Shown piece by piece: positions 1,819-61,161 of a stretch of 64,000 nucleotides of DNA (positions are counted from its first letter, which is position 1; each line of letters begins with the position of its first letter). Both the position numbers and the translations under genes were made by a program. The notes below the pieces were generated by a model. That model did not search any database and was not told the DNA's origin. It was given only the letters and a program-made list of their open reading frames with translations. Source of the stretch: Candidatus Saccharimonadota bacterium (GTDB lineage: Bacteria; Patescibacteriota; Saccharimonadia; QS-5-54-17). The DNA lies in NCBI GenBank assembly GCA_050486185.1, contig JBJHCT010000003.1, forward strand, positions 37,500 to 101,499, written 5' to 3'.

Positions 1819-2069
1819 CTAGGTATTATATCAGCCCAATAAAGATACATCAGAAAGATATTTAACCAAAAAGAAAAGACTTCCCGCTGGGTGGCTTAGA
1901 AACCACGGTGCCAAAAGTCTTTCATTTATAATATTCTCATACATAAGCACAAGGCGCAAGTAAGCAGCCTCTTTGGTGTGGTTAGTAACTACATGTAATT
2001 AACTACTTGGTAGTTCTCTCTAACAAACAGCTAATTCCTGGTAGAATAAACATAAAGGTAAAACTGCTT

Positions 2070-3386
2070 ATGTCCACTATCAAAGCCTCTAAATTCCAAC
2101 ACCCTGACTCTCCTGATCCTAATCTAGAGACTAATGCTGATGGTTCAATACATGCTAATAAACTTGACGTAGATGAGATAACAACTAGCTCATTAAGACA
2201 CCCTGATTCAATAAATCCAGGACTTTCTATGATGGGTAACGGTGATGTGCATATGAATGGTAATTTGGTGGTGAATAATACGGTTAGCTTTACAGAAATA
2301 GATACGGTTAAAACAGCCTCTATACAGAATCCAAACTCTCAATCAGCTAGCATATCGATAGGGTCTGATGGTGGTGTTGGCATCCTATCGAATATGAGTG
2401 CAACTGGTGATGTCGATATTTCAGGCAGACTATCGGCAGGGTATTTAGATGATGGTATCGCAACGACCCAGCTATATAATTTTTCCGGGACAATTCGCTT
2501 TACCACTTGTGGGAAGACTGGACCGATTGGACCAAGTCTCTCAGATGCGGTTAGTAGCTACTCATTAGAGCCTTTCGCTAGTGAATGGCTTGAGGTTGAT
2601 GGTAGGTTTGAGGTTGTGGGAGGGGTTCAATACTTTAAGATTCCTAAGACAGGCCAATATCAAATCAGGGCCGCTGGGTCTAGGAGCGGTGATTCTAACT
2701 GGGGAGGTTTGGGTATAGATATAACTTCTACGGCAGAGTTTCGTGCCGGTGAAATTATACGTATAGTAGTCGGACAAAAGGGCCAAGGGAATAGTGCAAC
2801 ATATGCTGGCGGTGGTGGAGCTTCAGCCCTAGCTGTTAGGAGGATGGACTTGTGGGTACCTATCTTAATTGCTGGTGGAGGAGCAGGACAGTCAAATAAT
2901 AGTCCAAACTCTTTTAACGCCAACAGGAATGCTTTTGCTCCAGACGTTAGAAGTGGTGACAACTTTGGTGGTAGAGGCAGCTATTACAGTACTAGCTACA
3001 GTACCTCTATAGGTCATAATTGGCCAGGCGGTGGAGGTGGTGGTTGGTCATCAGATGGTTATGACGGTAGGATTAATTACTTTGGCTCCGGTCAACCGAT
3101 AGGTGGTAGGGCTTTGAGTTCAGAATCTCCCATGGGCGGTCGGTATTTTATAGACCCAAACAACACTTATGATGGTGGGTTTGGCGGTGGCGGAGCCACT
3201 GGTGTCGGTGGTGGTGCTGCTGGCGGTGGCGGCGGTTGGTGGGGAGGGAACTCTTCTTATGCAGGTATTGGTGCTAGTTCTGATGATACTAGTCATTTGG
3301 GCGGTGGTAGCTATTCCAGAAACAGTACTTATACTGTCGAGGGGACCAACAACGATCAAGGTTTTGTAGAGATAACTTTAACTTAA
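2070..3386 (+). CDS. Gly-rich paralog family member 1: conserved N-module MSTIKASKFQHPDS…, Gly-rich core, C-terminal …GFVEITLT
   Basis: Long ORF. The ATG at 2070 is chosen because the protein from there aligns with the N-termini of the three downstream paralogs. RBS-like AAAGG sits 11 nt upstream. A QHPDS/RHPDS motif is repeated internally. No N-terminal hydrophobic signal peptide. Confidence 0.75.
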   Translation: MSTIKASKFQHPDSPDPNLETNADGSIHANKLDVDEITTSSLRHPDSINPGLSMMGNGDVHMNGNLVVNNTVSFTEIDTVKTASIQNPNSQSASISIGSDGGVGILSNMSATGDVDISGRLSAGYLDDGIATTQLYNFSGTIRFTTCGKTGPIGPSLSDAVSSYSLEPFASEWLEVDGRFEVVGGVQYFKIPKTGQYQIRAAGSRSGDSNWGGLGIDITSTAEFRAGEIIRIVVGQKGQGNSATYAGGGGASALAVRRMDLWVPILIAGGGAGQSNNSPNSFNANRNAFAPDVRSGDNFGGRGSYYSTSYSTSIGHNWPGGGGGGWSSDGYDGRINYFGSGQPIGGRALSSESPMGGRYFIDPNNTYDGGFGGGGATGVGGGAAGGGGGWWGGNSSYAGIGASSDDTSHLGGGSYSRNSTYTVEGTNNDQGFVEITLT

Positions 3387-3459
3387 ATTAAGAAAGTCTT
3401 TAGTCTTTTTGCTAAACTTAAACATAACTAACTTTTTAAGAAAAGCGACTATATAGCTA

Positions 3460-4908
3460 ATGTCCACTATCAAAGCCTCTAACCTCCAGCACCCTGACTC
3501 ACTAGATCCTAACCTAGAGACTAATGCGGACGGCTCGGTTCATGCTAATAAACTGGATGCCGATGAGTTAACTGCCGGTACTATTAATGCTAGTGGGTTG
3601 AATATTAATGAAGCCAACATTCAAGATTCAATCGATCAATCTATCTCACAGTCCAAGCTAATGACTGAGAACACCCAAACCCAAGACTACACCTTGCAAC
3701 TTAGTGATATAGGTAGAGTAGTAGTGATAGATAGTGAGACAGATAGAACTATCACTATACCTAACTCATCAGCAGTAGATTTTCCCATAGGTTCCGTAAT
3801 TTATCTATACAGACAAGGTGAAGGGAGAGTAGTTGTTACTGGTGCAGAGGGTGTGACGGTTAAGAACGATGGTAATCTTCCTAAAGAAGAAGATATCTAT
3901 GTCCGTAAACGAGCTACTAATGAGTGGGTAGTCTTTCCTTCTTTGTGGAAACCCGTTAACGCTTCAGGAGGTCAGTTCAAGACTGTTACAGTTTCAGACA
4001 CAGTCTATGGGGTTCATATGTTCACTGATATTGGTTCAGCGGAATTTCATATCTTAGATGAAGGTTCTGAAAGTAAACTCGATGTTTTGATTGTCGGTGG
4101 CGGCGGCGGCGGCGGAGGTTACGGTGGCGGCGGCGGTGGAGGTGCCGTGCTTCACTCTGTAGATAGACCAATAGAAAAAAATACTTACCAGATAGTGGTT
4201 GGAGCAGGTGGAGATGCTAGGCCGTGGGTTAATAGCGTGGCTGGCCCTGAAGCTGCGGAGCCTTTCGGCGGGGGTTCATCTAGTGCTTTTGGTTTGGCGG
4301 CTACCGGTGGTGGTGCTGGCGGTAGCTATAACGGTAGAGATGCTGGTCATGGGGCTAATGGTGGTGGTAGTGGGGCTTATGGTAGCGGTGACTTAGGTGG
4401 TACTAGTAACAAGTCATTTCCTGGAGTTGGTGTAGTCCCAGAAGGCGATGATTATACAACGGTCTACGCAGGTAATACTGGTGGTGACGCTAATGTTACC
4501 TCGCCTAACTTCCCTTTAGCCGGTGGAGCTGGTGCCGGAGAGGACGGGCAATCACAACCTAGTAGCTCTGGTAACGGCGGTAATGGTGGTAACGGAGTTA
4601 TGATTAATATTGAAGGTAACGACTACTACTGGGGTGGTGGAGGCGCTGGTGGCGTATATACAACTAACGGAACTGGTGGTAACGGCGGACTAGGTGGCGG
4701 TGGCGGAGGCGGTCAACTTGGATCTGGTGGCGGCTCAGCCCTAAATCCTGGCGGTGATGCTGGATCGCATCTATCTTCTGGCGGGGCCGGCGGCGCTAAT
4801 ACTGGTGGCGGAGGTGGCGGAGGTGGGTACAATAGTAACGGCTCAATTGGTTCACCAGGTGGTTCCGGTATTGTTATTATTCGTTATCCACTAGAAAAAC
4901 CATCGTAA
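3460..4908 (+). CDS. Gly-rich paralog family member 2: N-module MSTIKASNLQHPDS…, poly-Gly core, C-terminal GGSGIVIIRY
   Basis: 482 aa. The first ~45 aa are ~80% identical to members 1 and 4. Long GGGGGGGGYGGGGGG runs. A conserved C-terminal beta-strand-like motif. Confidence 0.8.
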   Translation: MSTIKASNLQHPDSLDPNLETNADGSVHANKLDADELTAGTINASGLNINEANIQDSIDQSISQSKLMTENTQTQDYTLQLSDIGRVVVIDSETDRTITIPNSSAVDFPIGSVIYLYRQGEGRVVVTGAEGVTVKNDGNLPKEEDIYVRKRATNEWVVFPSLWKPVNASGGQFKTVTVSDTVYGVHMFTDIGSAEFHILDEGSESKLDVLIVGGGGGGGGYGGGGGGGAVLHSVDRPIEKNTYQIVVGAGGDARPWVNSVAGPEAAEPFGGGSSSAFGLAATGGGAGGSYNGRDAGHGANGGGSGAYGSGDLGGTSNKSFPGVGVVPEGDDYTTVYAGNTGGDANVTSPNFPLAGGAGAGEDGQSQPSSSGNGGNGGNGVMINIEGNDYYWGGGGAGGVYTTNGTGGNGGLGGGGGGGQLGSGGGSALNPGGDAGSHLSSGGAGGANTGGGGGGGGYNSNGSIGSPGGSGIVIIRYPLEKPS

Positions 4909-4980
4909 CCTTAAGCTACTTACACATAATGAAACCTGCTACACTTTAGGTGTAAGTAAAGAGTCAAAATAGGTATATAA

Positions 4981-6396
4981 ATGTCCACCATCAAAGCCTC
5001 TAAATTCCAACATCCAGACTCAGAAGGCAAGAACATAGAACTAGACTCTAGTGGCAATGCTTCATTTAGTGGGGAGATTAAAGCCTCAAGTATTCGCCAT
5101 CCTAACTCTTCAAACAGCCAAATCACTATGAATATCGATGGCACAGTTAATGTTAGCGGTTTAAGTGTTAACGATGAGGATATTCAAGACACCATATCCC
5201 AAACCAAACTTTCTTCAGAAAAAGAACTTACTCCTGATTTAAACGATGAATACACCCTAGGGCTAGAAGATGCTGGGAAAGTACTGACTTTAGATGATGC
5301 TGATGAAAACAAAGTAGTTACTGTCAATATTCCTAATGATAGTCAAGCTGATTTTGAAGTAGGTTCAACCGTAAAGTTGTATCGCGATAACGAAGCCGGT
5401 ATTACCATCAAAGCTAATGAGAGCGTTAGTATCAAAAGCCCTCTTGCTCCTGGGCCATACTACTTTGTTAGAAAGTATGGTGAACCTCAACTTAGAAAAA
5501 GAGCTGCTAACCAGTGGGTTTTAACCGAAAACGGTCTACTAATCCAGTCCCTACTTGCTGTAGGTGGTAACGAAGTTTTTGAAGAGATTATTAATGGAGC
5601 AGTGTATCGTATCCACGTTTTTACTACCGTAGGCTCTTCACAGGCTTTTGAAGTAGAGCTTGGCGGCGGCGAAGTTGAGTATCTAGTAGTTGCTGGAGGC
5701 GGTGGTGGTGGAATGGTTAACACTGGATCTGTTGGATCCGCAGGGGGTGGAGCCGGCGGATATAGATGTAGCGTCAAAGGAGAATTGTCTGGAGGTAATA
5801 ATCAAGCAGAACCTCCTTTGGTAGTAGAAAAAGGATCTTACACAGTTACAGTGGGAGCAGGAGGAGTAAAAGGTGTAACTACAAATAATCCTGGTGGAGA
5901 CGGTGGTGATTCGACACTAGGATCAGTAGTTAGTTTAGGCGGCGGCGGAGGCGGAGGTACTGGTCACGGTAGAAATGGTGGCTCTGGCGGCGGCGGAGGT
6001 TACGGTGGCGGCTCAGCTGGCAGCGGCACATCCAGTCAAGGCTTTGACGGTGGGGGTGGATCTACAGAAGCCGTTGCTCCCGGATCTGCAGGCGGTGGTG
6101 GAGGTGCATCTGAACCTGGTATTAAACCTGCGACTGCTTCATCAGCGGGGGGTAATGGCGGTGATGGTATAGAGTCAAATATTACAGGATTACCTACCTA
6201 TCGTGCTGGCGGCGGTGGAGGTGGACAGAATAACTCTGCCTGGGGTTCGGGAGGTTTAGGTGGCGGAGCCGATGCTGGTAATGGTAATAGCGGTGAGAAT
6301 AATACTGGCGGTGGCGGAGGTGGAACTCGCTCTGGCTTAGCTAACCCAGGTCAAGGCGGCTCCGGCATAGTCATAGTTCGTTACCGCATCGGTTAA
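4981..6396 (+). CDS. Gly-rich paralog family member 3
   Basis: 471 aa. N-module MSTIKASKFQHPDS plus a second RHPNS repeat. Shares a ~100-aa middle module with member 4 (EYTLxLEDAGKVLTLDD…VVTVNIPND…FEVGS…LYR…PLAPGP). Gly-rich core. C-terminal GGSGIVIVRYRIG. Confidence 0.8.
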   Translation: MSTIKASKFQHPDSEGKNIELDSSGNASFSGEIKASSIRHPNSSNSQITMNIDGTVNVSGLSVNDEDIQDTISQTKLSSEKELTPDLNDEYTLGLEDAGKVLTLDDADENKVVTVNIPNDSQADFEVGSTVKLYRDNEAGITIKANESVSIKSPLAPGPYYFVRKYGEPQLRKRAANQWVLTENGLLIQSLLAVGGNEVFEEIINGAVYRIHVFTTVGSSQAFEVELGGGEVEYLVVAGGGGGGMVNTGSVGSAGGGAGGYRCSVKGELSGGNNQAEPPLVVEKGSYTVTVGAGGVKGVTTNNPGGDGGDSTLGSVVSLGGGGGGGTGHGRNGGSGGGGGYGGGSAGSGTSSQGFDGGGGSTEAVAPGSAGGGGGASEPGIKPATASSAGGNGGDGIESNITGLPTYRAGGGGGGQNNSAWGSGGLGGGADAGNGNSGENNTGGGGGGTRSGLANPGQGGSGIVIVRYRIG

Positions 6397-6451
6397 ACTT
6401 CTTAATAAATAACTAAACCCTGCTAAAATAAACATAAAGGTAAAACCATTT

Positions 6452-7057
6452 ATGTCTACTATTAAAACCTCTAACATCCAACACCCTGACTCACCAGACT
6501 CTAATTTAGAGACCAATGCGGACGGCTCGGTCCATGCTAATAAGTTAGATGCTGATGAATTAACTACTGGGCAAATCAATGCCGATACTATTACAACCGG
6601 CACCATTAATGCTACTGGGATAAATATAGATGATACTAATATCCAAGAAACTATCTCTCAAACTAAACTATCTCTTGAAAAGAATATAGTCCCAAGTGAG
6701 AGCAATGAATACACCCTAGAGCTTGAAGATGCCGGTAAAGTCCTAACTCTTGATGATGAGGATGAAGAAAAAGTAGTGACTGTCAATATTCCTAATGATA
6801 ATGAAGTGAATTTTGAAGTAGGCTCTAATGTTAGTTTGTATCGTGGCGACAATGCCAACATCGAAGTATCTGCTAATAACGGAGTCGATATCAAAACCCC
6901 TCTAGCTCCAGGTCCTAGTAACGCCTCTGGTGGAAATCCAGGTAACGGCACCAATGGCTTAGGCGGTGGAGGCGGTGGATCAAATGGTTATAACGGTAAT
7001 TTAGATGGTGGAGCTGGTGGCTCTGGAATTGTCGTCGTTCGTTATCGCATCGGCTAG
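6452..7057 (+). CDS. Gly-rich paralog family member 4 (short form, 201 aa)
   Basis: Same N-module, the middle module shared with member 3, a short Gly-rich core, and C-terminal GGSGIVVVRYRIG. Its upstream 26 nt are nearly identical to those upstream of member 1. Confidence 0.8.
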   Translation: MSTIKTSNIQHPDSPDSNLETNADGSVHANKLDADELTTGQINADTITTGTINATGINIDDTNIQETISQTKLSLEKNIVPSESNEYTLELEDAGKVLTLDDEDEEKVVTVNIPNDNEVNFEVGSNVSLYRGDNANIEVSANNGVDIKTPLAPGPSNASGGNPGNGTNGLGGGGGGSNGYNGNLDGGAGGSGIVVVRYRIG

Positions 7058-7100: not shown

Positions 7101-8132
7101 ATGATCGCAGTGATTCTAGCTGGAGGTTCTGGTAGCCGGCTTTGGCCTTTGTCGACACCAGATAAGCCGAAGCATTTAATGTCGGTTAATGGTAGCAGTA
7201 CGTTGTTGCAAGATACTCTCGATAGAGCAGCTGTATTTGCTGATGATATTTATGTAGTTACTGATATATCTCATTCAAAGTTAGTAGCAGGTCAGCTCAA
7301 AGGTAGAATCGATGAAGACCATATCATAGTTGAACCTGATCGTCGCGGTACGGCATCGGCAATAGTACTAGCGCTGGCTACACTAGAGTCACTACATGGG
7401 CCCGATATGCCGGTCTGCTTTATGCATGCTGATCACTATATAACCGATAAGCAGGCCTTTGCTGAATCTGTTGAAAAAGCCATTAGTGCTGCTAGGAAAC
7501 ATCAATCCATAGCTCTAATCGGAGTTGAGCCTGACTATCCAGCTACCGGTTTTGGCTATATCAAAAAATCTAAGCAATTATCTGGTGGGGCTTTTGGCGT
7601 AGCTGGGTTTGAAGAGAAGCCAGATCTTGATACTGCCCAAGAGTATCTATCTAGCAGTAAGTATGTTTGGAACCTAGGTTTATTTGCTGCTCCAATCGAT
7701 ATATTTATCAAAGAGATGGATTCACATGCCAAGCACCTGCATCTAGGTCACAAGCAATTAAGTGATCACATCAAAGCGGGTAGGGACTACAGCGATACCT
7801 ATAAATCCATGATCAATGAGGCTATCGATACAGCTTTAATTGAAAAGTCGAGTAATTTAGTAGTGGTACCGGCCGGTTTTGACTGGCTAGATATTGGCTC
7901 CTACAAAGACCTACATGAAGTACTACCTAAAACCGATGAGTATGGCAATACTATAGAGGGCCAAGTGGTAGCTATCGATGCTAAAGACTCGATCATCATG
8001 GAACAGACTGGCGTACCACTAGCTATCTTAGGACTAGATGATGTGGTGGTAGTTAGCACTGATAAGGGTATATTAATTTGTTCTAAAGAGTACTCACAAA
8101 GAATTAAAGAGGCTACCGAGCAAATGCCCTAA
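7101..8132 (+). CDS. sugar-phosphate nucleotidyltransferase (mannose-1-phosphate guanylyltransferase-like)
   Basis: 343 aa. N-terminal IAVILAGGSGSRLWPLS…KPK motif of the NTP-transferase (GlmU/RmlA/ManC) fold. No C-terminal cupin. Confidence 0.75.
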   Translation: MIAVILAGGSGSRLWPLSTPDKPKHLMSVNGSSTLLQDTLDRAAVFADDIYVVTDISHSKLVAGQLKGRIDEDHIIVEPDRRGTASAIVLALATLESLHGPDMPVCFMHADHYITDKQAFAESVEKAISAARKHQSIALIGVEPDYPATGFGYIKKSKQLSGGAFGVAGFEEKPDLDTAQEYLSSSKYVWNLGLFAAPIDIFIKEMDSHAKHLHLGHKQLSDHIKAGRDYSDTYKSMINEAIDTALIEKSSNLVVVPAGFDWLDIGSYKDLHEVLPKTDEYGNTIEGQVVAIDAKDSIIMEQTGVPLAILGLDDVVVVSTDKGILICSKEYSQRIKEATEQMP

Positions 8133-8476
8133 ATACCTGAATTTATACCAAAGACATCAACAAGTGATTCCTTTACTTGGTTAAGTTTGTTTTGATTAAT
8201 TAGGGCTACAGTTTTCTTAATTAAGCTTTCATCTGCTGTAAATATTTTATCAGGGCGTATATAGCTAGTTATGGGTAGGCTAGATATAGCAAAATCCTTT
8301 TCAGATAATACTACTGCTCGTTTACTGCTATATGGTTGAGAGGTGATTTGGCATAAGATTAAGTTATCAAACTCAGCTTGAGCTAGCACTAGAGCAGGCC
8401 TAGATTTACTTTCTGTTAAATCAGAAAAAGGAAAATCAACTACAACTATTGATCCTGGTTCTAAAGTTTCGACCAT
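8129..8476 (-). CDS. mazF: MazF/PemK-family endoribonuclease toxin
   Basis: 115 aa. Sequence GSIVVVDFPFSDLTESKSRPALVL… matches PemK/MazF. Overlaps the upstream AbrB-type antitoxin gene by 16 nt. Confidence 0.7.
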   Translation of the reverse strand: MVETLEPGSIVVVDFPFSDLTESKSRPALVLAQAEFDNLILCQITSQPYSSKRAVVLSEKDFAISSLPITSYIRPDKIFTADESLIKKTVALINQNKLNQVKESLVDVFGINSGI

Positions 8477-8697
8477 GCCTTATCTTCCGCTGGGTTTAGC
8501 CAGTCTTTAGCCAAAGATTTTTCACTTAAAACAGCCGAACTGAAGGAGTCAGCTGTTTTAGCTGGAACTATACGTATCTCCCCGCGCTTAACCTCAAGCT
8601 CAACCTTATCAGGTAGCTCGCTTCTAATTAAAGCTTCTTTGGGTATGCGGATACCTTTGGAATTTCCGATTCTGGTTATATTAGTAATCTTATTCAT
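8461..8697 (-). CDS. mazE: AbrB/MazE-family antitoxin (SpoVT/AbrB domain)
   Basis: Internal Met start gives MNKITNITRIGNSKGIRIPKE…, the swapped-hairpin AbrB motif. Translationally coupled to mazF. Confidence 0.65.
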   Translation of the reverse strand: MNKITNITRIGNSKGIRIPKEALIRSELPDKVELEVKRGEIRIVPAKTADSFSSAVLSEKSLAKDWLNPAEDKAWSKL

Positions 8698-8768
8698 TGT
8701 AATTACAATTGTATATACAAAGTTAAGAAAAGTCAATAAGGTTAATTAGTATTTAGGAGATAAAAAAC

Positions 8769-9545
8769 CTACGGCTGCAACGTGCCACCGTAAACCTGCC
8801 AAGCTAGGGCTGATTTAGCTACTAGGCTTAAAACTATGTAGGTTTTCTCACCATACAGATAGTCATGCCACTTACCGACTTTTTTGTATTGTAAGATCAT
8901 ATTAATAGCAAAGCTATTAAAGAAGACAAAGATAGATCCATATATCCAGTAGACAAAGGTTGGGATTTCACCGACCCCATAACTATTTGCAATCCAGAAG
9001 TAGATAGCTATGACTATCCAAGGAACAGCTCCGGCCAATACGCCGATATTGTAACTCAACCAGTTGGTTTTAGTAGTGCTTTGGTTGTGAACTTCCATGA
9101 CTAGACCCATGAGATTCATCACGGCAGTGAGGGTAAATATCATGATTAAACTACCTAAGTCGTATATACCTACTAGCATGGCTATAGCTACTATCATGAT
9201 AGAAGCAGATAGAGAGTACTCATACCAGCGAGCCTTATTAATACCCAAGGCCAAATTAGCTTCATATTTCTGCCTATAGATAGTAGCGATTATTAGATGA
9301 GCTGTTGCTGATATAGCGAAGAAAGCAAATATCAACCAGGCTAGGGGCAAGCTAAATAGTTCCGTATTCATTAGAACCAAACTCTGAGTAGTATTATCAA
9401 AGTCTAGATAGGAGCCGTTGATAGGTAGAGCAAAGTCACTACTGAGCCAGGCTATAGCGGTTGCTTGAATGGCGTGCAGTCCAGCCATAGCCAGGTTAAA
9501 TGTTTTCAACCTCTTGAGCTTTGAGCTTATATCTTCAGGATTCAT
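8769..9545 (-). CDS. heliorhodopsin-like 7-TM retinal protein
   Basis: 258 aa. The N-terminus …LKTFNLAMAGLHAIQATAIAWLSSDFALP…, the mid-protein WYEYSLSASIMIVAIAML, and the TM7 motif YIVLSLVAKSALAWQ with a candidate Schiff-base Lys match my recollection of the heliorhodopsin (48C12/TaHeR) family. Confidence 0.65.
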   Translation of the reverse strand: MNPEDISSKLKRLKTFNLAMAGLHAIQATAIAWLSSDFALPINGSYLDFDNTTQSLVLMNTELFSLPLAWLIFAFFAISATAHLIIATIYRQKYEANLALGINKARWYEYSLSASIMIVAIAMLVGIYDLGSLIMIFTLTAVMNLMGLVMEVHNQSTTKTNWLSYNIGVLAGAVPWIVIAIYFWIANSYGVGEIPTFVYWIYGSIFVFFNSFAINMILQYKKVGKWHDYLYGEKTYIVLSLVAKSALAWQVYGGTLQP

Positions 9546-9633
9546 ATGTTTTAGCCTCCAATTTTTAAAATTACTTCTTTAAATCAATTATATACCAGTT
9601 CTTCTACACCTAATATGGCGCCAATGTTGACAA

Positions 9634-9648
9634 GTTCGGTCTATGTTC
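9634..9648 (+). promoter_or_regulatory. GTTC-N7-GTTC direct-repeat (LexA-box-like) operator between -35 TTGACA (9627-9632) and -10 TATACT (9651-9656) of lexA
   Basis: Read directly: TTGACAaGTTCggtctatGTTCgaTATACT. The same motif architecture recurs at 10328-10342 upstream of the next gene. Confidence 0.5.
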
Positions 9649-9663
9649 GATATACTAGTTGCC

Positions 9664-10284
9664 ATGATGAAGCAAACCTTAACTAAAAAACAAAAACAGA
9701 TGTTAGATTATATCCGTGAGTCCTCTAGTGAGTTTGGTTATGCGCCTACCTTTAGAGAGATTATGGATGGGCTTAATTACAGCTCAGTAGCTACAGTAGC
9801 TCAACATATCGATAACCTAGTTAAAAAAGGCTATTTATACAAGCGCAACAACGAAGCTAGATCGATTCAGTTAGTTGAAACTGATGTCGATACAGAAAGC
9901 ACGCATGGCTTACCCGTTATGGGTTGGATCGCTGCTGGTGAGCCAATCACTACTTTAGATAACCCCAACGAGACGCTGCAGGTACCTAACTTTATGATCA
10001 AAAGCGACACTAGCTATGTTCTGCAAGTAAAAGGCGAGAGTATGATTGAAGACGGCATATTAGATGGAGACTACATAGTAGTTAGAGAAAACCGCGTACC
10101 CCAAGATGGTGATGTGGTGGTTGCTATGATCGATGGGGACTCTGCTACCCTAAAACACTTCTACAAGGAAGGCGAACGCATTCGTCTAGAGCCGGCTAAC
10201 TCAGCATATGAGCCTATCTATATCGAAAAGGGCAGATCACTAGAAGTCCAAGGTGTAGTTACTGGAGTAGTTAGAGCCTATTAA
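9664..10284 (+). CDS. lexA: LexA repressor (S24 peptidase)
   Basis: N-terminal wHTH (MMKQTLTKKQKQMLDYIRES…GYAPTFREI). C-terminal S24 domain with GESMIEDGILDGDYIVV and the catalytic Ser/Lys context. Confidence 0.85.
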   Translation: MMKQTLTKKQKQMLDYIRESSSEFGYAPTFREIMDGLNYSSVATVAQHIDNLVKKGYLYKRNNEARSIQLVETDVDTESTHGLPVMGWIAAGEPITTLDNPNETLQVPNFMIKSDTSYVLQVKGESMIEDGILDGDYIVVRENRVPQDGDVVVAMIDGDSATLKHFYKEGERIRLEPANSAYEPIYIEKGRSLEVQGVVTGVVRAY

Positions 10285-10327
10285 ACCTCTTCTAGGTTAA
10301 GACTCCATAAAACATCTAACAATTGAT

Positions 10328-10342
10328 TTTCGTATTCTGTTC
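10328..10342 (+). promoter_or_regulatory. second GTTC-N7-GTTC-like operator (TTTC-N7-GTTC) inside a TTGATT / TATAAT promoter
   Basis: Sequence TTGATTttCgtattctGTTCgtaTATAAT lies 16-35 nt upstream of the HNH-like ORF start. Confidence 0.45.
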
Positions 10343-10357
10343 GTATATAATGTTTTC

Positions 10358-10666
10358 ATGCCAAGAGAAAAAAGAACTTACGCAGACCGTAGAGAAGAGC
10401 TCATAAAAGCGGTCGCTAAAAGACGAAGAAAGCTCAAAGAATTAGCCATTGAGTACAAAGGTGGTAGCTGCCAAGTGTGCGGATATGATAGATATCAAGG
10501 AGCTCTTGAGTTTCATCATCTAAACCCTAAAGAGAAGAAATTCGGCATAGCTGACAAGGGATATACCCGCTCCTGGGATGAAGTAAAAGAAGAGTTAGAT
10601 AAATGCGTTTTGGTTTGCGCTAATTGCCATAGGGAAGTTGGGTTTGGTGGTGTGAAGCTGAGTTAG
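10358..10666 (+). CDS. small HNH-family nuclease-like protein
   Basis: 102 aa, basic N-terminus. The CxxCG…EFHHLNP…CANCH pattern has the HNH/His-Me finger layout. Probable SOS-regulon member, by promoter architecture only. Confidence 0.55.
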   Translation: MPREKRTYADRREELIKAVAKRRRKLKELAIEYKGGSCQVCGYDRYQGALEFHHLNPKEKKFGIADKGYTRSWDEVKEELDKCVLVCANCHREVGFGGVKLS

Positions 10667-10722
10667 TTGTTTACGAGGGGGGATATACAGGCTAGAATAT
10701 ATACTGTCCAATAACTGGATGA

Positions 10723-11030
10723 TCCTGGGTAGCTCAATGGTAGAGCAACTGGCTGTGAAAACGCAGCTTTCCGATCGAAAGACGGATCGAATAACGAGGT
10801 GAACTGCTGGAAGCCTAAGGCCTATTTAGCTAAGGTAATCAGCATCCAAGCCTTGCTACAAGATAGCAAGGAAGGTTCAGAGACTATCTCGCAAGAGAGT
10901 ACTCCACTTACCCTGGAGGAAGCGCCTCGCTCCCTTTTATTTTTGGGAGATGATATAGTCCACGCCCGTTGGAAACAGCGGGATAAGTGTAACCAGTAGG
11001 TTGGCGGTTCGAGTCCGCCCCCAGGAGCCA
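10723..11030 (+). tRNA. tRNA-Asn(GUU) interrupted by a group I intron (exon 1 10723-10756, exon 2 10990-11030, CCA encoded)
   Basis: Acceptor TCCTGGG/CCCAGGA, discriminator G, D-arm GCTC-AATGGTA-GAGC, anticodon stem ACTGG/CCAGT, T-arm GGCGG-TTCGAGT-CCGCC. The spliced loop is cuGUUaa, which matches the classical Asn anticodon loop CUQUUAA. Confidence 0.7.
10757..10989 (+). ncRNA. group I self-splicing intron in the tRNA-Asn anticodon loop, ~233 nt, no ORF
   Basis: P1 is exon gcugU paired to the intron guide sequence Gcagc (10763-10767), giving a U•G wobble at the 5' splice site. P7-like 5' strand ..cAGAGACUAucucg.. and 3' strand ..GAUAUAGUCCacgcc.. (compare Tetrahymena …AGAUAUAGUCGGACC). Terminal omega-G at 10989. 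Confidence 0.65.
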
Positions 11031-11994
11031 AGATTGATTTTTAGAACACTCTGCGATTACATCAAAGGGTGTTTTCAGATTAAAAACCAGCTTTTTGTCT
11101 TGAATTACGAGGTTCGAAAGCAGAAAGCGTAAAAGTTTGGATTTTAGTGCCGCTTTCGAACTTTGGAACAGTTTAGGTGCTTTTGTGGCTATCTCTAACA
11201 GATACGAACTGGTTAACATAAAACTTTTGTCATTGTGCGTTAAAGTAACCAGCTGTTCGTCTAGTTGCTCTTGTCGGGCTTTCAGGTCCTTAACATATTC
11301 GTCATAGTCATTGAGAGTAATACGCCCATCGAGCCTGTCCTCGTACAGCACACGCAGCTTTTTCTGTATTGTATCGTACTCTACACGGGTCTGCTCAATA
11401 GCGTTGGCGTAGTAAAGCTGCTGGTTATCGTGGTGCTTACGAAGCTCGTCAATTACGTATTTAACAATATCCTCGTTCATTTCAAGCTGTCCAACCATAG
11501 CAGCAACCTGCGGCACAAGGTCCTTTTCTTTGATGTGAGCCTGTTTGCACGGACCTTTGCCTTTGCTGCATTGCATATAAACGTTACCTTTGGCTGTATA
11601 AGAGGATATGCTACAACCACAGCTACCGCATTTTAATAAGCCGTTAAACGTATAGTCAGTCTTTTGCTTTTTGGTCCTGTTAGTACCACGCTGGTCATTT
11701 ACAGCCTGTACCTTATCAAACATCTTGCGGCTTATAAGCGGCTCGTATTTATGAGGGTACAGTTTGCCGTTATACCGCATAACGCCATAGTAAAACGGGT
11801 TTTTAAGTATCTGCTCAATCGTGCTTTGACCAATAGGGGTTAGTTTGGCTGTATTATTTCTTAAACCCTCTTTTTTGAGTTGTGCAGCAATGCCTCTATA
11901 AGGTGTGCCGATTAACCGCAGTTCAAATGCCTTTTTAATGTAGCCAGCTCGTTCTTGGTCTAACAGTACGGTTGTTTCTTTGTCGCTAATTCTA
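10908..11994 (-). pseudogene. large serine recombinase (integrase) fragment: recombinase domain, Zn-ribbon and coiled-coil, lacking the N-terminal catalytic resolvase domain
   Basis: Homology to serine integrases runs from …ISDKETTVLLDQERAGYIKKAFELRLIG… through the CGSCG Zn-ribbon and coiled-coil to …FDVIAECSKNQ. The first ~100 codons of the 460-aa ORF are antisense read-through of the adjacent ATPase fragment. The last ~40 codons run over the tRNA-Asn 3' exon. Confidence 0.6.
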
Positions 11995-12510
11995 TGGATT
12001 AATCTGGTGACCGACAGTGCGATGGTAATTCCCTTAGGGATGGAGCCGGGTGAGTCCGATCTGATGGAGCGACCACCGCGTAAGCCCAAAAAACCGATCC
12101 TCGGTAAAGTCGTGATTACACGTATGATCTTTATCGCCAGTATAATGGCGTTGGTGACCTTAAGTCTATTCACCTTCTTCCTGCAGTTTATGAGCGAAGA
12201 GTATGCGCGTACTATCGCTTTTAATGCCCTGGTTGTTATGCAGTGGGCCGATGCCTTTAACGCCCGTTCGCTCTGGCAGTCGATATTCATTCGTATTAAG
12301 ACGATGAATAAGTCGTTCTACGTAGGTTTGACGATTGCTGTTTCGATGCATATTTTAGCCATGTTCGGACCGATGCAAAACCCATTGTCAATCGAAAATG
12401 TCCAGCTCAATCATCTGCTCATCACGAGCCTCATCGCTATCGTGCCGATCATCATCGCCGGAGAGCTTCACAAGTTGATTATCCAGCGTATCGATCCAGA
12501 TTTCCGCTAG
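11980..12510 (+). pseudogene. C-terminal fragment (TM7-10) of a P2-type cation-transporting ATPase
   Basis: LILWINLVTDSAMVIPLGMEPGESDLMERPPRKPK… is the signature of the cation_ATPase_C region. No upstream A, P or N domains. It abuts the integrase fragment with no gap. Confidence 0.6.
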
Positions 12511-59970: not shown

Positions 59971-61161
59971 TTACTCCTTTTCCCAGATCACTTGATCTTT
60001 AATCTCCTCAGGCAAAAAACCCTTATCATGCTCAAAACCCGCTTCCCACTTGTAATCTTGGCCGTAGCCTAAATCTTTCATTAATTTAGTCGGGGCGTTA
60101 CGTACGTGCAAAGGCACGCTTAAATCTTGGTACTCTTCTGCTAGTTTCAGAGCTTTGTTCATAGCCTCAGTTACTTTTCTTGATTTATCACATCTAGCTA
60201 GTACGCTAGCGCAGTGGAACAGGTTGTACTGGCACTCAGGCATACCGATCTTTTCTACGGCCTCAAAAGTAGCTACTGCTAGGTTTAAGGCTCCATTAGT
60301 AGCTATACCGACATCTTCGCTAGCAAAAACTGCCATCCGGCGAGCGATGAACTTAGGGTCTTCACCAGCTTGAAGCATCCTAGCTAGGTAATAGAGGGTG
60401 GCGTCGATATCACTACCCCGCATAGATTTAATGAAGGCTGAGATGAGGTTATGGTGCATCTCGCCAGCTTTATCAAATCCTGGGATGCGTTTTTGGGCAG
60501 CGGTTTTAATATCATCTATAGAGACCTTCTTACTACTTACTCGTAAGGCTAACTCCAGGATATTCAGTGCTATGCGGCTATCACCACCTGATAGCTGGGT
60601 GATATATTCAACCGCTCTTTTATCTAACTTACTTTTAGCTTTAATACTGCGAGCTGCTCTATCTATGATTTTTTCTATATCTTTAGGTTTTAGCGGCTCT
60701 AAAACCAAAACTCTAGAGCGAGATATGAGGGGTCTAATAACTTCAAAGCTAGGGTTTTCTGTAGTAGCACCGATTAAGGTAATTAGCCCGCTTTCTACGT
60801 GGGGTAAGAAGGCATCTTGCTGGGCTTTGTTGAACCTGTGGATCTCATCCACAAATAGGATAGTAGGGGTCTTGAGCCTCCTATTTTCCTCAGCAGTCTT
60901 AATAACTCTACGGACATCCTCTAATTTTGCCGATACGGCCGATATCTCTATGAATTCAGCCTCTACTTCACTAGCTATGATGCGAGCTAGAGTGGTCTTG
61001 CCGCTACCAGGAGGCCCCCAAAGTATCAAAGATGTTAGTTGCTTGCTATCAACTAATTTTTTAATTAGTCCACTCTTGCCCACTAAATGATCTTGGCCTA
61101 TGAATTCGTCTAGGCTTTTAGGTCGCATAGATTCTGCTAGTGGTACGTCTGAATCTCTCAC
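59971..61161 (-). CDS. rarA: replication-associated recombination protein A (AAA+ ATPase)
   Basis: 396 aa. Walker A GPPGSGKTT, Walker B FVDEIHR, and the MgsA C-terminal domain. Confidence 0.85.
   Translation of the reverse strand: MRDSDVPLAESMRPKSLDEFIGQDHLVGKSGLIKKLVDSKQLTSLILWGPPGSGKTTLARIIASEVEAEFIEISAVSAKLEDVRRVIKTAEENRRLKTPTILFVDEIHRFNKAQQDAFLPHVESGLITLIGATTENPSFEVIRPLISRSRVLVLEPLKPKDIEKIIDRAARSIKAKSKLDKRAVEYITQLSGGDSRIALNILELALRVSSKKVSIDDIKTAAQKRIPGFDKAGEMHHNLISAFIKSMRGSDIDATLYYLARMLQAGEDPKFIARRMAVFASEDVGIATNGALNLAVATFEAVEKIGMPECQYNLFHCASVLARCDKSRKVTEAMNKALKLAEEYQDLSVPLHVRNAPTKLMKDLGYGQDYKWEAGFEHDKGFLPEEIKDQVIWEKE

Follow-up and report, generated by a model that had tools for sequence, protein, structure and literature searches.

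A 64 kb stretch of a Saccharimonadales genome (the window, to which all coordinates below refer) contains two promoters that very probably carry operators for LexA, the repressor of the SOS response. One of them is the promoter of lexA itself. The other belongs to a small, free-standing gene for an endonuclease of the HNH type, which lies between lexA and a transfer RNA (tRNA) gene that is interrupted by a group I intron. In both promoters, a direct repeat with a period of 11 bp is found between the -35 and -10 hexamers, and the same arrangement recurs ahead of lexA in related genomes and ahead of other SOS genes in related metagenomic DNA. Sites of this type are normal for the group and have already been reported; what appears to be new, and it is a modest addition, is a predicted SOS target, namely a homing-type HNH gene beside a tRNA intron that contains no open reading frame (ORF).

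A first-pass annotation of this DNA had described two promoters with a direct repeat between -35 and -10, and reading of the sequence together with a promoter scan confirms both of them (Table 1). Its coordinates were right for the first promoter, whereas the end given for the second (10350) is one base short of the real end at 10351. In a scan against the sigma-70 consensus, the lexA promoter matches 11 of the 12 hexamer positions and has a spacer of 18 nucleotides (nt), and the HNH promoter matches 10 of 12 with a 17-nt spacer. The half-sites of the lexA operator are GTTCG at 9634-9638 and GTTCG at 9645-9649, with a single a on either outer flank. In the HNH promoter, TTCG at 10329-10332 is followed by tattct and then by GTTCG at 10339-10343, after which ta leads into the -10 hexamer. 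The 11-bp period of the direct repeat corresponds to a single turn of the helix, which puts the two units on one face of the DNA. Only 6-7 nt separate the end of the -10 hexamer from the ATG at both genes (9664 or 9667 for lexA and 10358 for HNH), and a Shine-Dalgarno sequence is absent ahead of either one, so the two mRNAs are probably leaderless.

The significance of the repeat depends on how it is written. As GTTC-N7-GTTC, the form in which it had been annotated, it occurs once in the window compared to 1.06 times by chance, which is not significant alone, and the second site begins with TTTC rather than GTTC in its first half. The core that the two sites share, TTCG-N6-GTTCG, occurs exactly twice in the 64 kb, at these two sites, with a chance expectation of 0.16. 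When the core is combined in register with a -35 hexamer (at most two mismatches) and a -10 hexamer (at most one mismatch), two cases are observed, and the number expected per 64 kb is 0.0007. The last two expectations were obtained from 3000 Markov-chain sequences matched in composition. A matrix made with the relatives only ranks the lexA site first in the window at 19.7 bits and the HNH site second at 14.0 bits, followed by the next-best site at 11.3 bits. Searches of the window with a relaxed core, with the matrix, and with half-sites found no further sites in promoter context.

The ORF behind the first site, which starts at 9664 or 9667 and ends at 10284, is, judged from its sequence, a bona fide LexA that is predicted to be cleavable. 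Pfam finds both of the expected domains, LexA_DNA_bind (PF01726, E = 7.3e-16) and Peptidase_S24 (PF00717, E = 2.2e-33), and the NCBIfam equivalog TIGR00498 scores 196.7 bits against a cut-off of 110.95. An alignment with structures matches Ala90-Gly91, Ser125, and Lys163 to the cleavage site and the catalytic dyad of the Escherichia coli LexA. The surrounding motifs correspond as well, with AAGEP, GESM, and TLKHF in the window protein matching VAAGEP, GMSM, and TVKRL in E. coli. The nearest LexA proteins all belong to Patescibacteria, and the best genome matches are two metagenome-assembled genomes of Candidatus Saccharimonadales, with LexA identities of 88% and 73%, which places the window in a member of the Patescibacteria. 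The recognition helix of this clade reads S(V/P)ATVxxH and resembles the E. coli and Gram-positive types.

Evidence for the first operator also comes from its conservation. The lexA loci of relatives were collected by protein similarity alone and their upstream regions were then read. The same promoter-operator stands ahead of lexA in eight independent loci (L001, L002, L012, L016, L018, L019, L020, and L021), in the order of a TTGACA-like -35, zero to two bases, nTTCG-N6-GT(T/A)CG, one base, and a TATAAT-like -10. Every Saccharibacteria relative with a complete lexA is covered, over a range of LexA identity of 53-88%. The six spacer bases differ between the loci while both half-sites are nearly invariant; read across these upstream regions, the pattern is a classical phylogenetic footprint. 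In another locus, L014, the promoter-operator precedes a GIY-YIG-lexA operon, in which the GIY-YIG ORF is inserted between the operator and lexA. A second matrix, made from the eight relative operators and both window sites, was applied to 226 kb from the relatives' loci, and the sites of at least 18 bits were only those of the lexA operons, one extra promoter in L001, and the HNH site of the window. LexA loci from other phyla (Anaerolineales, Chloroflexi, Planctomycetota, and Moraniibacteriota; L003-L011) had no convincing site upstream of lexA, and L008 gave only a truncated match.

In one of these relatives, L020 (9891-9929), the half-site region of the lexA operator makes up one arm of a perfect inverted repeat of 15 bp, in which CCGAACAAAAACCGC is followed by 9 nt that include the -35 hexamer and then by GCGGTTTTTGTTCGG. 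The repeat may be a pair of operators in opposite orientation, or it may be the terminator of the upstream gene and serve as the operator at the same time.

Metagenomic DNA was used to look beyond lexA, since lexA is the only canonical SOS gene in the window, where recA, uvrA, and dinB are absent and where a RarA-like gene (59971-61161) has no LexA site that could be found. The JGI metagenomes were scanned with the promoter-operator pattern only, TTGACN{1,3}TTCGNNNNTTGTTCGNTANNNT, which specifies 19 bases, and the first long downstream ORFs were then grouped into families and named by Pfam. At least 120 loci match the pattern, compared to roughly 10 matches expected by chance, a figure that rests on an assumed size of the collection. 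Among the matches listed, the downstream genes are 31 lexA genes, 32 Y-family polymerases (with IMS domains), 3 recA, 1 rarA/mgsA, and 1 dprA, as well as 6 DUF72 genes and 4 genes for four-helix proteins of the 23S-rRNA-IVP type. The loci of low GC content (0.29-0.52), which are presumably Patescibacteria, include about eight of the Y-family polymerase loci listed (e.g., L051, L087, L033, L121, and L140), recA in L062 and L089, rarA in L073, and also lexA. All 31 listed LexA proteins have the S(V/P)ATVxxH helix in common, and they are 31-70% identical to the window LexA, with all but one at 40% or above.

The metagenomic sites also define the operator more closely. Among the 109 unique sites listed, the positions that the pattern left free show C or G after each TTCG (94 sites for the first unit and 100 for the second), and the final three of them in the spacer are T. 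In the relatives, T or A mostly replaces the first G of GTTC, and the invariant unit is TTCG. This means that the annotation was right about the direct repeat and its 11-bp period but not about the unit, in which (T/G)TTCG precedes a C or G and the spacer is rich in T. Its reading of the repeat as a LexA operator placed for autoregulation is strongly supported, by the footprint among the relatives and by the association with SOS genes; in the related metagenomic DNA, lexA, recA, dinB-type polymerases, and rarA have the motif ahead of them, the kind of genes on which that reading had been made to depend. Independent data thus support the view that a small SOS regulon of uncultured Patescibacteria is controlled through a direct-repeat LexA box, and for annotation its consensus can be given as TTGACa, n, (T/G)TTCG with C or G, a T-rich spacer, GTTCG with C or G, and TATAAT.

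Two further features of the metagenome matches were seen. Dozens of soil contigs with a GC content of 0.54-0.62 (e.g., L028, L032, L041, L076, and L104) share a 28-nt promoter-operator that hardly varies, TTGACTTTCGCTTTTTGTTCGCTATACT, with a Y-family polymerase or DUF72 gene behind it. In eight other loci (L025, L026, L033, L046, L094, L121, L139, and L140), the LexA box is directly followed by a conserved small ORF of about 80-96 amino acids (aa) without a Pfam match, which in several of them precedes a Y-family polymerase gene. This ORF is a candidate for an uncharacterized SOS gene of the Patescibacteria.

Table 1. Promoters, operators, and genes around lexA in the window
Feature	Position	Strand	Evidence or remark
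-35 hexamer TTGACA, lexA promoter	9627..9632	+	Sequence reading and promoter scan; similar hexamer placed alike in relatives
LexA operator of lexA (predicted), GTTCG-gtctat-GTTCG, 11-bp period	9634..9649	+	Conserved in 8 Saccharibacteria loci
-10 hexamer TATACT, lexA promoter	9651..9656	+	1 nt past the operator; promoter scan
lexA	9664..10284	+	Likely start ATG 9667, giving 205 aa as in relatives; mRNA probably leaderless
-35 hexamer TTGATT, HNH promoter	10323..10328	+	Sequence reading and promoter scan
Second predicted LexA operator, TTTCG-tattct-GTTCG	10328..10343	+	Shared core; matrix rank 2
-10 hexamer TATAAT, HNH promoter	10346..10351	+	Sequence reading and promoter scan
HNH endonuclease gene, free-standing, 102 aa	10358..10666	+	Pfam HNH, E = 1.4e-5
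Promoter-like TTTACG-17-TAGAAT, probably of the tRNA gene	10670..10698	+	Promoter scan; region conserved in L001
tRNA gene with ORF-less group I intron	10723..11030	+	Rfam RF00028, 69.3 bits

The repeat had been called phylogenetically unexpected for a genome of this kind. This does not hold, as the genome belongs to the Saccharimonadales, the motif is the norm for its LexA clade, and a motif for the Patescibacteria was published in 2017. The SOS network of the Patescibacteria was reportedly analyzed in that year by Sanchez-Osuna, Barbe, and Erill (Environ Microbiol 19:3465; PMID 28618189). In two other papers, which come from the same group, the 2017 work is cited among those that established 17 distinct LexA motifs (PMC8565304) and as a case in which LexA independently evolved the recognition of a direct repeat (PMC7739468). 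The published motif concerns the same superphylum and the same repressor, and the lexA, recA, and Y-family polymerase targets seen here fit a small SOS regulon. The other part of the annotation's comparison, that the repeat is not the Gram-positive Cheo box CGAAC-N4-GTTCG, is borne out, with no such sequence at 9400-9700 near lexA even when two mismatches are allowed. The two boxes share the GTTCG half-site, and the LexA helix here looks closer to the Gram-positive than to the alphaproteobacterial type, but the Cheo box is a palindrome with a 4-nt spacer and the second half-site here is in direct orientation. Over the window as a whole, up to two mismatches being allowed, the Gram-positive palindrome has 14 matches compared to 12 expected, none of them near lexA, and it was rejected.

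The gene behind the second operator belongs to a large family of the homing-endonuclease type, a relationship that the annotation had overlooked together with the intron-containing tRNA gene beside it. Its product retains an intact HNH motif with its zinc cysteines (CxxC at 38-41, HH at 53-54, and CANCH at 87-91, all of them conserved in the homologues) and shares 70-79% identity with about 2000 proteins of widely differing Patescibacteria. Most of these have their genes within a group I intron of a tRNA gene or standing free next to that tRNA. In L144-L149 and L150-L155, the 5' half of a tRNA gene is followed by the start of the homologue after about 45 nt, and a group I intron core comes next and partly overlaps it; read in this way, these homologues are encoded in the P1 loop of the tRNA intron. 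The intron guide sequence encodes the C-terminal tail that they usually have, AGITQLP. The protein of the window belongs to a subgroup with the tail VK(L/I)S, in which the gene is free-standing and adjoins an intron-bearing tRNA gene, lying upstream of the tRNA in L156 and downstream of it in L157 and L159. In the window, the HNH gene ends 57 nt before the tRNA gene. The syntenic locus of L001 has heliorhodopsin, RhuM, lexA, and the intron-bearing tRNA but no HNH gene, and by this comparison the HNH cassette (about 10285-10670) is an insertion between lexA and the tRNA.

Free-standing homing endonucleases that serve ORF-less introns are known from phages, and one such endonuclease is paired with the psbA intron of a cyanophage. 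Another example is T4, in which mobE is a free-standing homing endonuclease that works with the ORF-less I-TevIII intron (PMC2790892). The HNH gene of the window likewise adjoins a gene with an ORF-less group I intron, and in L144 and L147 its close homologues are encoded within the same intron. Unlike in the phage cases, the gene that harbors the intron is a bacterial chromosomal tRNA gene and the endonuclease gene has a predicted LexA operator.

How far can the LexA reading be carried, and in particular, how far does it extend to the HNH gene? Control of the HNH gene by LexA is plausible, and we lean towards it with less assurance than we have for the operator of lexA. The annotation had predicted that the HNH gene is SOS-induced; the composite of promoter and operator that such induction would need is present, but the control would be lineage-specific, since the free-standing homologues inspected do not have the box. 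Several points weigh against LexA control of one or both genes. With recA, uvrA, and dinB absent from the window, the regulon is seen in related DNA and not in this genome, and the metagenome loci that reveal it were chosen with a pattern that itself fixes the core bases and are of presumed taxonomy only. The GC-rich soil group is probably another phylum with an alphaproteobacterial-like box. The remaining points concern the HNH site. It scores 14 bits with the small relatives-only matrix, and 0.49 such sites are expected per 64 kb by chance, so its significance rests on its promoter context. It has T after both TTCG units, where most listed sites have C or G. No HNH gene lies downstream among the matches listed in the metagenome scan. 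The box is absent from the free-standing HNH homologues of L156, L157, and L159 as well as from the intron-encoded ones, and control of the HNH gene is therefore not conserved. None of the twelve HNH loci inspected, in four contexts, has a LexA box.

These last points would suit an alternative in which the operator of lexA is real but the HNH site only resembles one or is a relic without function, such as a promoter module copied during the insertion. Expression of the HNH gene would in that case be constitutive or depend on transcription that runs on from lexA, and no terminator was found between the two genes. The gap between 14.0 bits for the HNH site and 18.6-24.4 bits for the lexA sites points in the same direction. 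However, the core of the HNH site stands together with its -35 and -10 in the same register as at lexA, the combination for which 0.0007 occurrences are expected in a window of this length. Its T after each TTCG is shared by the lexA operator of L001 (TTTCGTTATTTGTTCGT), which is autoregulatory and otherwise differs from the HNH site at three positions, all of them in the spacer; the recognition helices of the L001 and window LexA proteins are identical. In relatives, too, other genes have independently come to lie behind this operator, a RhuM gene in L001 and a GIY-YIG gene in L014. We consider a relic unlikely, although it carries real weight.

For the repeat itself, two other explanations can be considered. 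It could be an alphaproteobacterial SOS box that arrived by lateral transfer of an alphaproteobacterial lexA, an event reportedly known from Acidobacterium capsulatum. The site at lexA is an exact match to GTTC-N7-GTTC, with its 11-bp period and TTC core, and the pattern used for the metagenome scan retrieved many sites ahead of Y-family polymerases in the GC-rich soil contigs. The details differ, however. Here the unit is (T/G)TTCG with C or G and a T-rich spacer, and the HNH site and most relatives begin with TTTC or ATTC. The LexA proteins closest to that of the window come from Patescibacteria without exception, and all of the listed LexA proteins behind the motif have the S(V/P)ATVxxH helix, which looks different from the alphaproteobacterial helix, SKSGIHRLI. 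Direct repeats have also been described as independently evolved (PMC7739468). Lateral transfer is therefore very improbable, and the likeness to the alphaproteobacterial box is best read as convergent. The other explanation is that some different regulator recognizes the repeat, or that it simply belongs to a promoter architecture specific to the lineage, as might be suspected of a motif that is always found inside the promoter spacer. There is only a slight chance of this. Among the matches listed, lexA, Y-family polymerases, and recA make up the great majority of the genes behind the motif, which marks a LexA regulon rather than promoters in general, and the third promoter of the region, the promoter-like site ahead of the tRNA gene (10670-10698), has no such repeat. 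The motif is also not an extended -10 element, since CG and not TG precedes the hexamer.

If both sites are operators of the Saccharimonadales LexA, their working can be pictured from established LexA biology as follows. A LexA dimer would bind the (T/G)TTCG direct repeat with its 11-bp period and T-rich spacer, and because the repeat fills the space between -35 and -10, the bound protein would block RNA polymerase. Upon DNA damage, RecA filaments would trigger the self-cleavage of LexA at Ala90-Gly91 by Ser125 and Lys163, and both promoters would be freed. The first operator would thereby autoregulate lexA, and the second would put the free-standing HNH gene under the same control. The HNH protein would be made only during the SOS response, when cells carry out the recombinational repair on which homing depends. 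As the resident tRNA allele already contains the intron, it should escape cleavage. Colicins E7 and E9 are HNH nucleases under LexA control, and they offer a parallel, with a DNase of the HNH motif silenced by a LexA operator in its promoter, as is predicted here. Of course, the colicins are secreted toxins that are borne on plasmids with immunity genes, whereas the gene of the window encodes a 102-aa enzyme of the homing type on the chromosome.

A wider pattern may lie behind this case, although it is a tentative one that we would sooner doubt than assert. In the Saccharimonadales, selfish or accessory genes of the nuclease type may repeatedly have been put behind LexA-box promoters at the lexA locus, with the SOS-induced HNH protein cooperating with the ORF-less tRNA-Asn intron. 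The cases at the lexA locus are HNH here, GIY-YIG in L014, and RhuM in L001. If true, DNA cutting and homing would be confined to cells in which recombinational repair is already on. Apart from this wider pattern, a gene of the homing-endonuclease type, and in relatives a GIY-YIG gene and a RhuM gene, appear to have been brought under LexA control. If confirmed, this would tie the activity of mobile elements to the response to DNA damage in organisms whose genomes are minimal.

The loci of these two relatives can be described more fully. In L001, a near-identical 34-nt module of promoter and LexA operator occurs twice (1782-1820 and 2914-2952), with one copy ahead of lexA and the other ahead of the RhuM-family gene (335 aa), which is inserted between the heliorhodopsin gene and lexA. 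In L014 (9621-10004), as also in L015, the GIY-YIG gene between the LexA-box promoter and lexA encodes 98 aa, and in L014 its end overlaps the start codon of lexA. GIY-YIG genes are also found directly 5' of the intron-bearing tRNA in L144-L149 and L157-L159.

The tRNA gene next to the HNH gene consists of a 5' exon (10723-10756), an intron of 233 nt (10757-10989), and a 3' exon (10990-11030). In the P1 helix, GCUGU/GCAGC, a U.G pair lies at the 5' splice site, and the terminal G of the intron is G10989. Splicing at these sites yields the anticodon loop CUGUUAA. The interrupted tRNA is probably tRNA-Asn(GUU), because the U.G pair and the terminal-G rule place the splice sites and the same solution fits L144. 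ARAGORN alone does not report a tRNA at 10723-11030, and a brute-force ARAGORN search for the splice sites was uninformative since many junctions are tolerated. Intron-bearing tRNA genes of this kind are widespread in Patescibacteria, often with an HNH ORF in the P1 loop. In L156 and L157, Rfam gives no intron match, although tRNA exons flank an insert of about 330 nt, and this insert is a different or more divergent intron.

The 3' side of the tRNA gene is occupied by a large ORF for a serine recombinase on the opposite strand (10908-12290, minus strand), the 3' end of which overlaps the 3' exon and the intron. Pfam finds its Recombinase and Zn_ribbon_recom domains but no Resolvase domain, and because this catalytic domain is missing, the ORF may be truncated. 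Full-length recombinases occur in the same place in L147, L150, and L151, on the opposite strand and just 3' of the HNH gene and tRNA. Since recombinases recur beside the tRNA in these three loci, the tRNA looks like a hot spot of integration.

On the other side of lexA lies a heliorhodopsin gene (8769-9545, minus strand; Pfam E = 3.3e-96), which is divergent from lexA. The LexA operator is about 90 bp upstream of its start codon, and the heliorhodopsin-lexA neighborhood is kept in L001. Farther upstream, a probable toxin-antitoxin pair was recognized by eye from the translations at 8129-8736 on the minus strand, with a PemK/MazF-like toxin of 115 aa and a small upstream ORF that is AbrB/SpoVT-like. 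At 2007-7057 on the plus strand are four tandem paralogues of 459, 482, 471, and 201 aa, which share the nearly identical N-terminus MSTIKASxxQHPDS....

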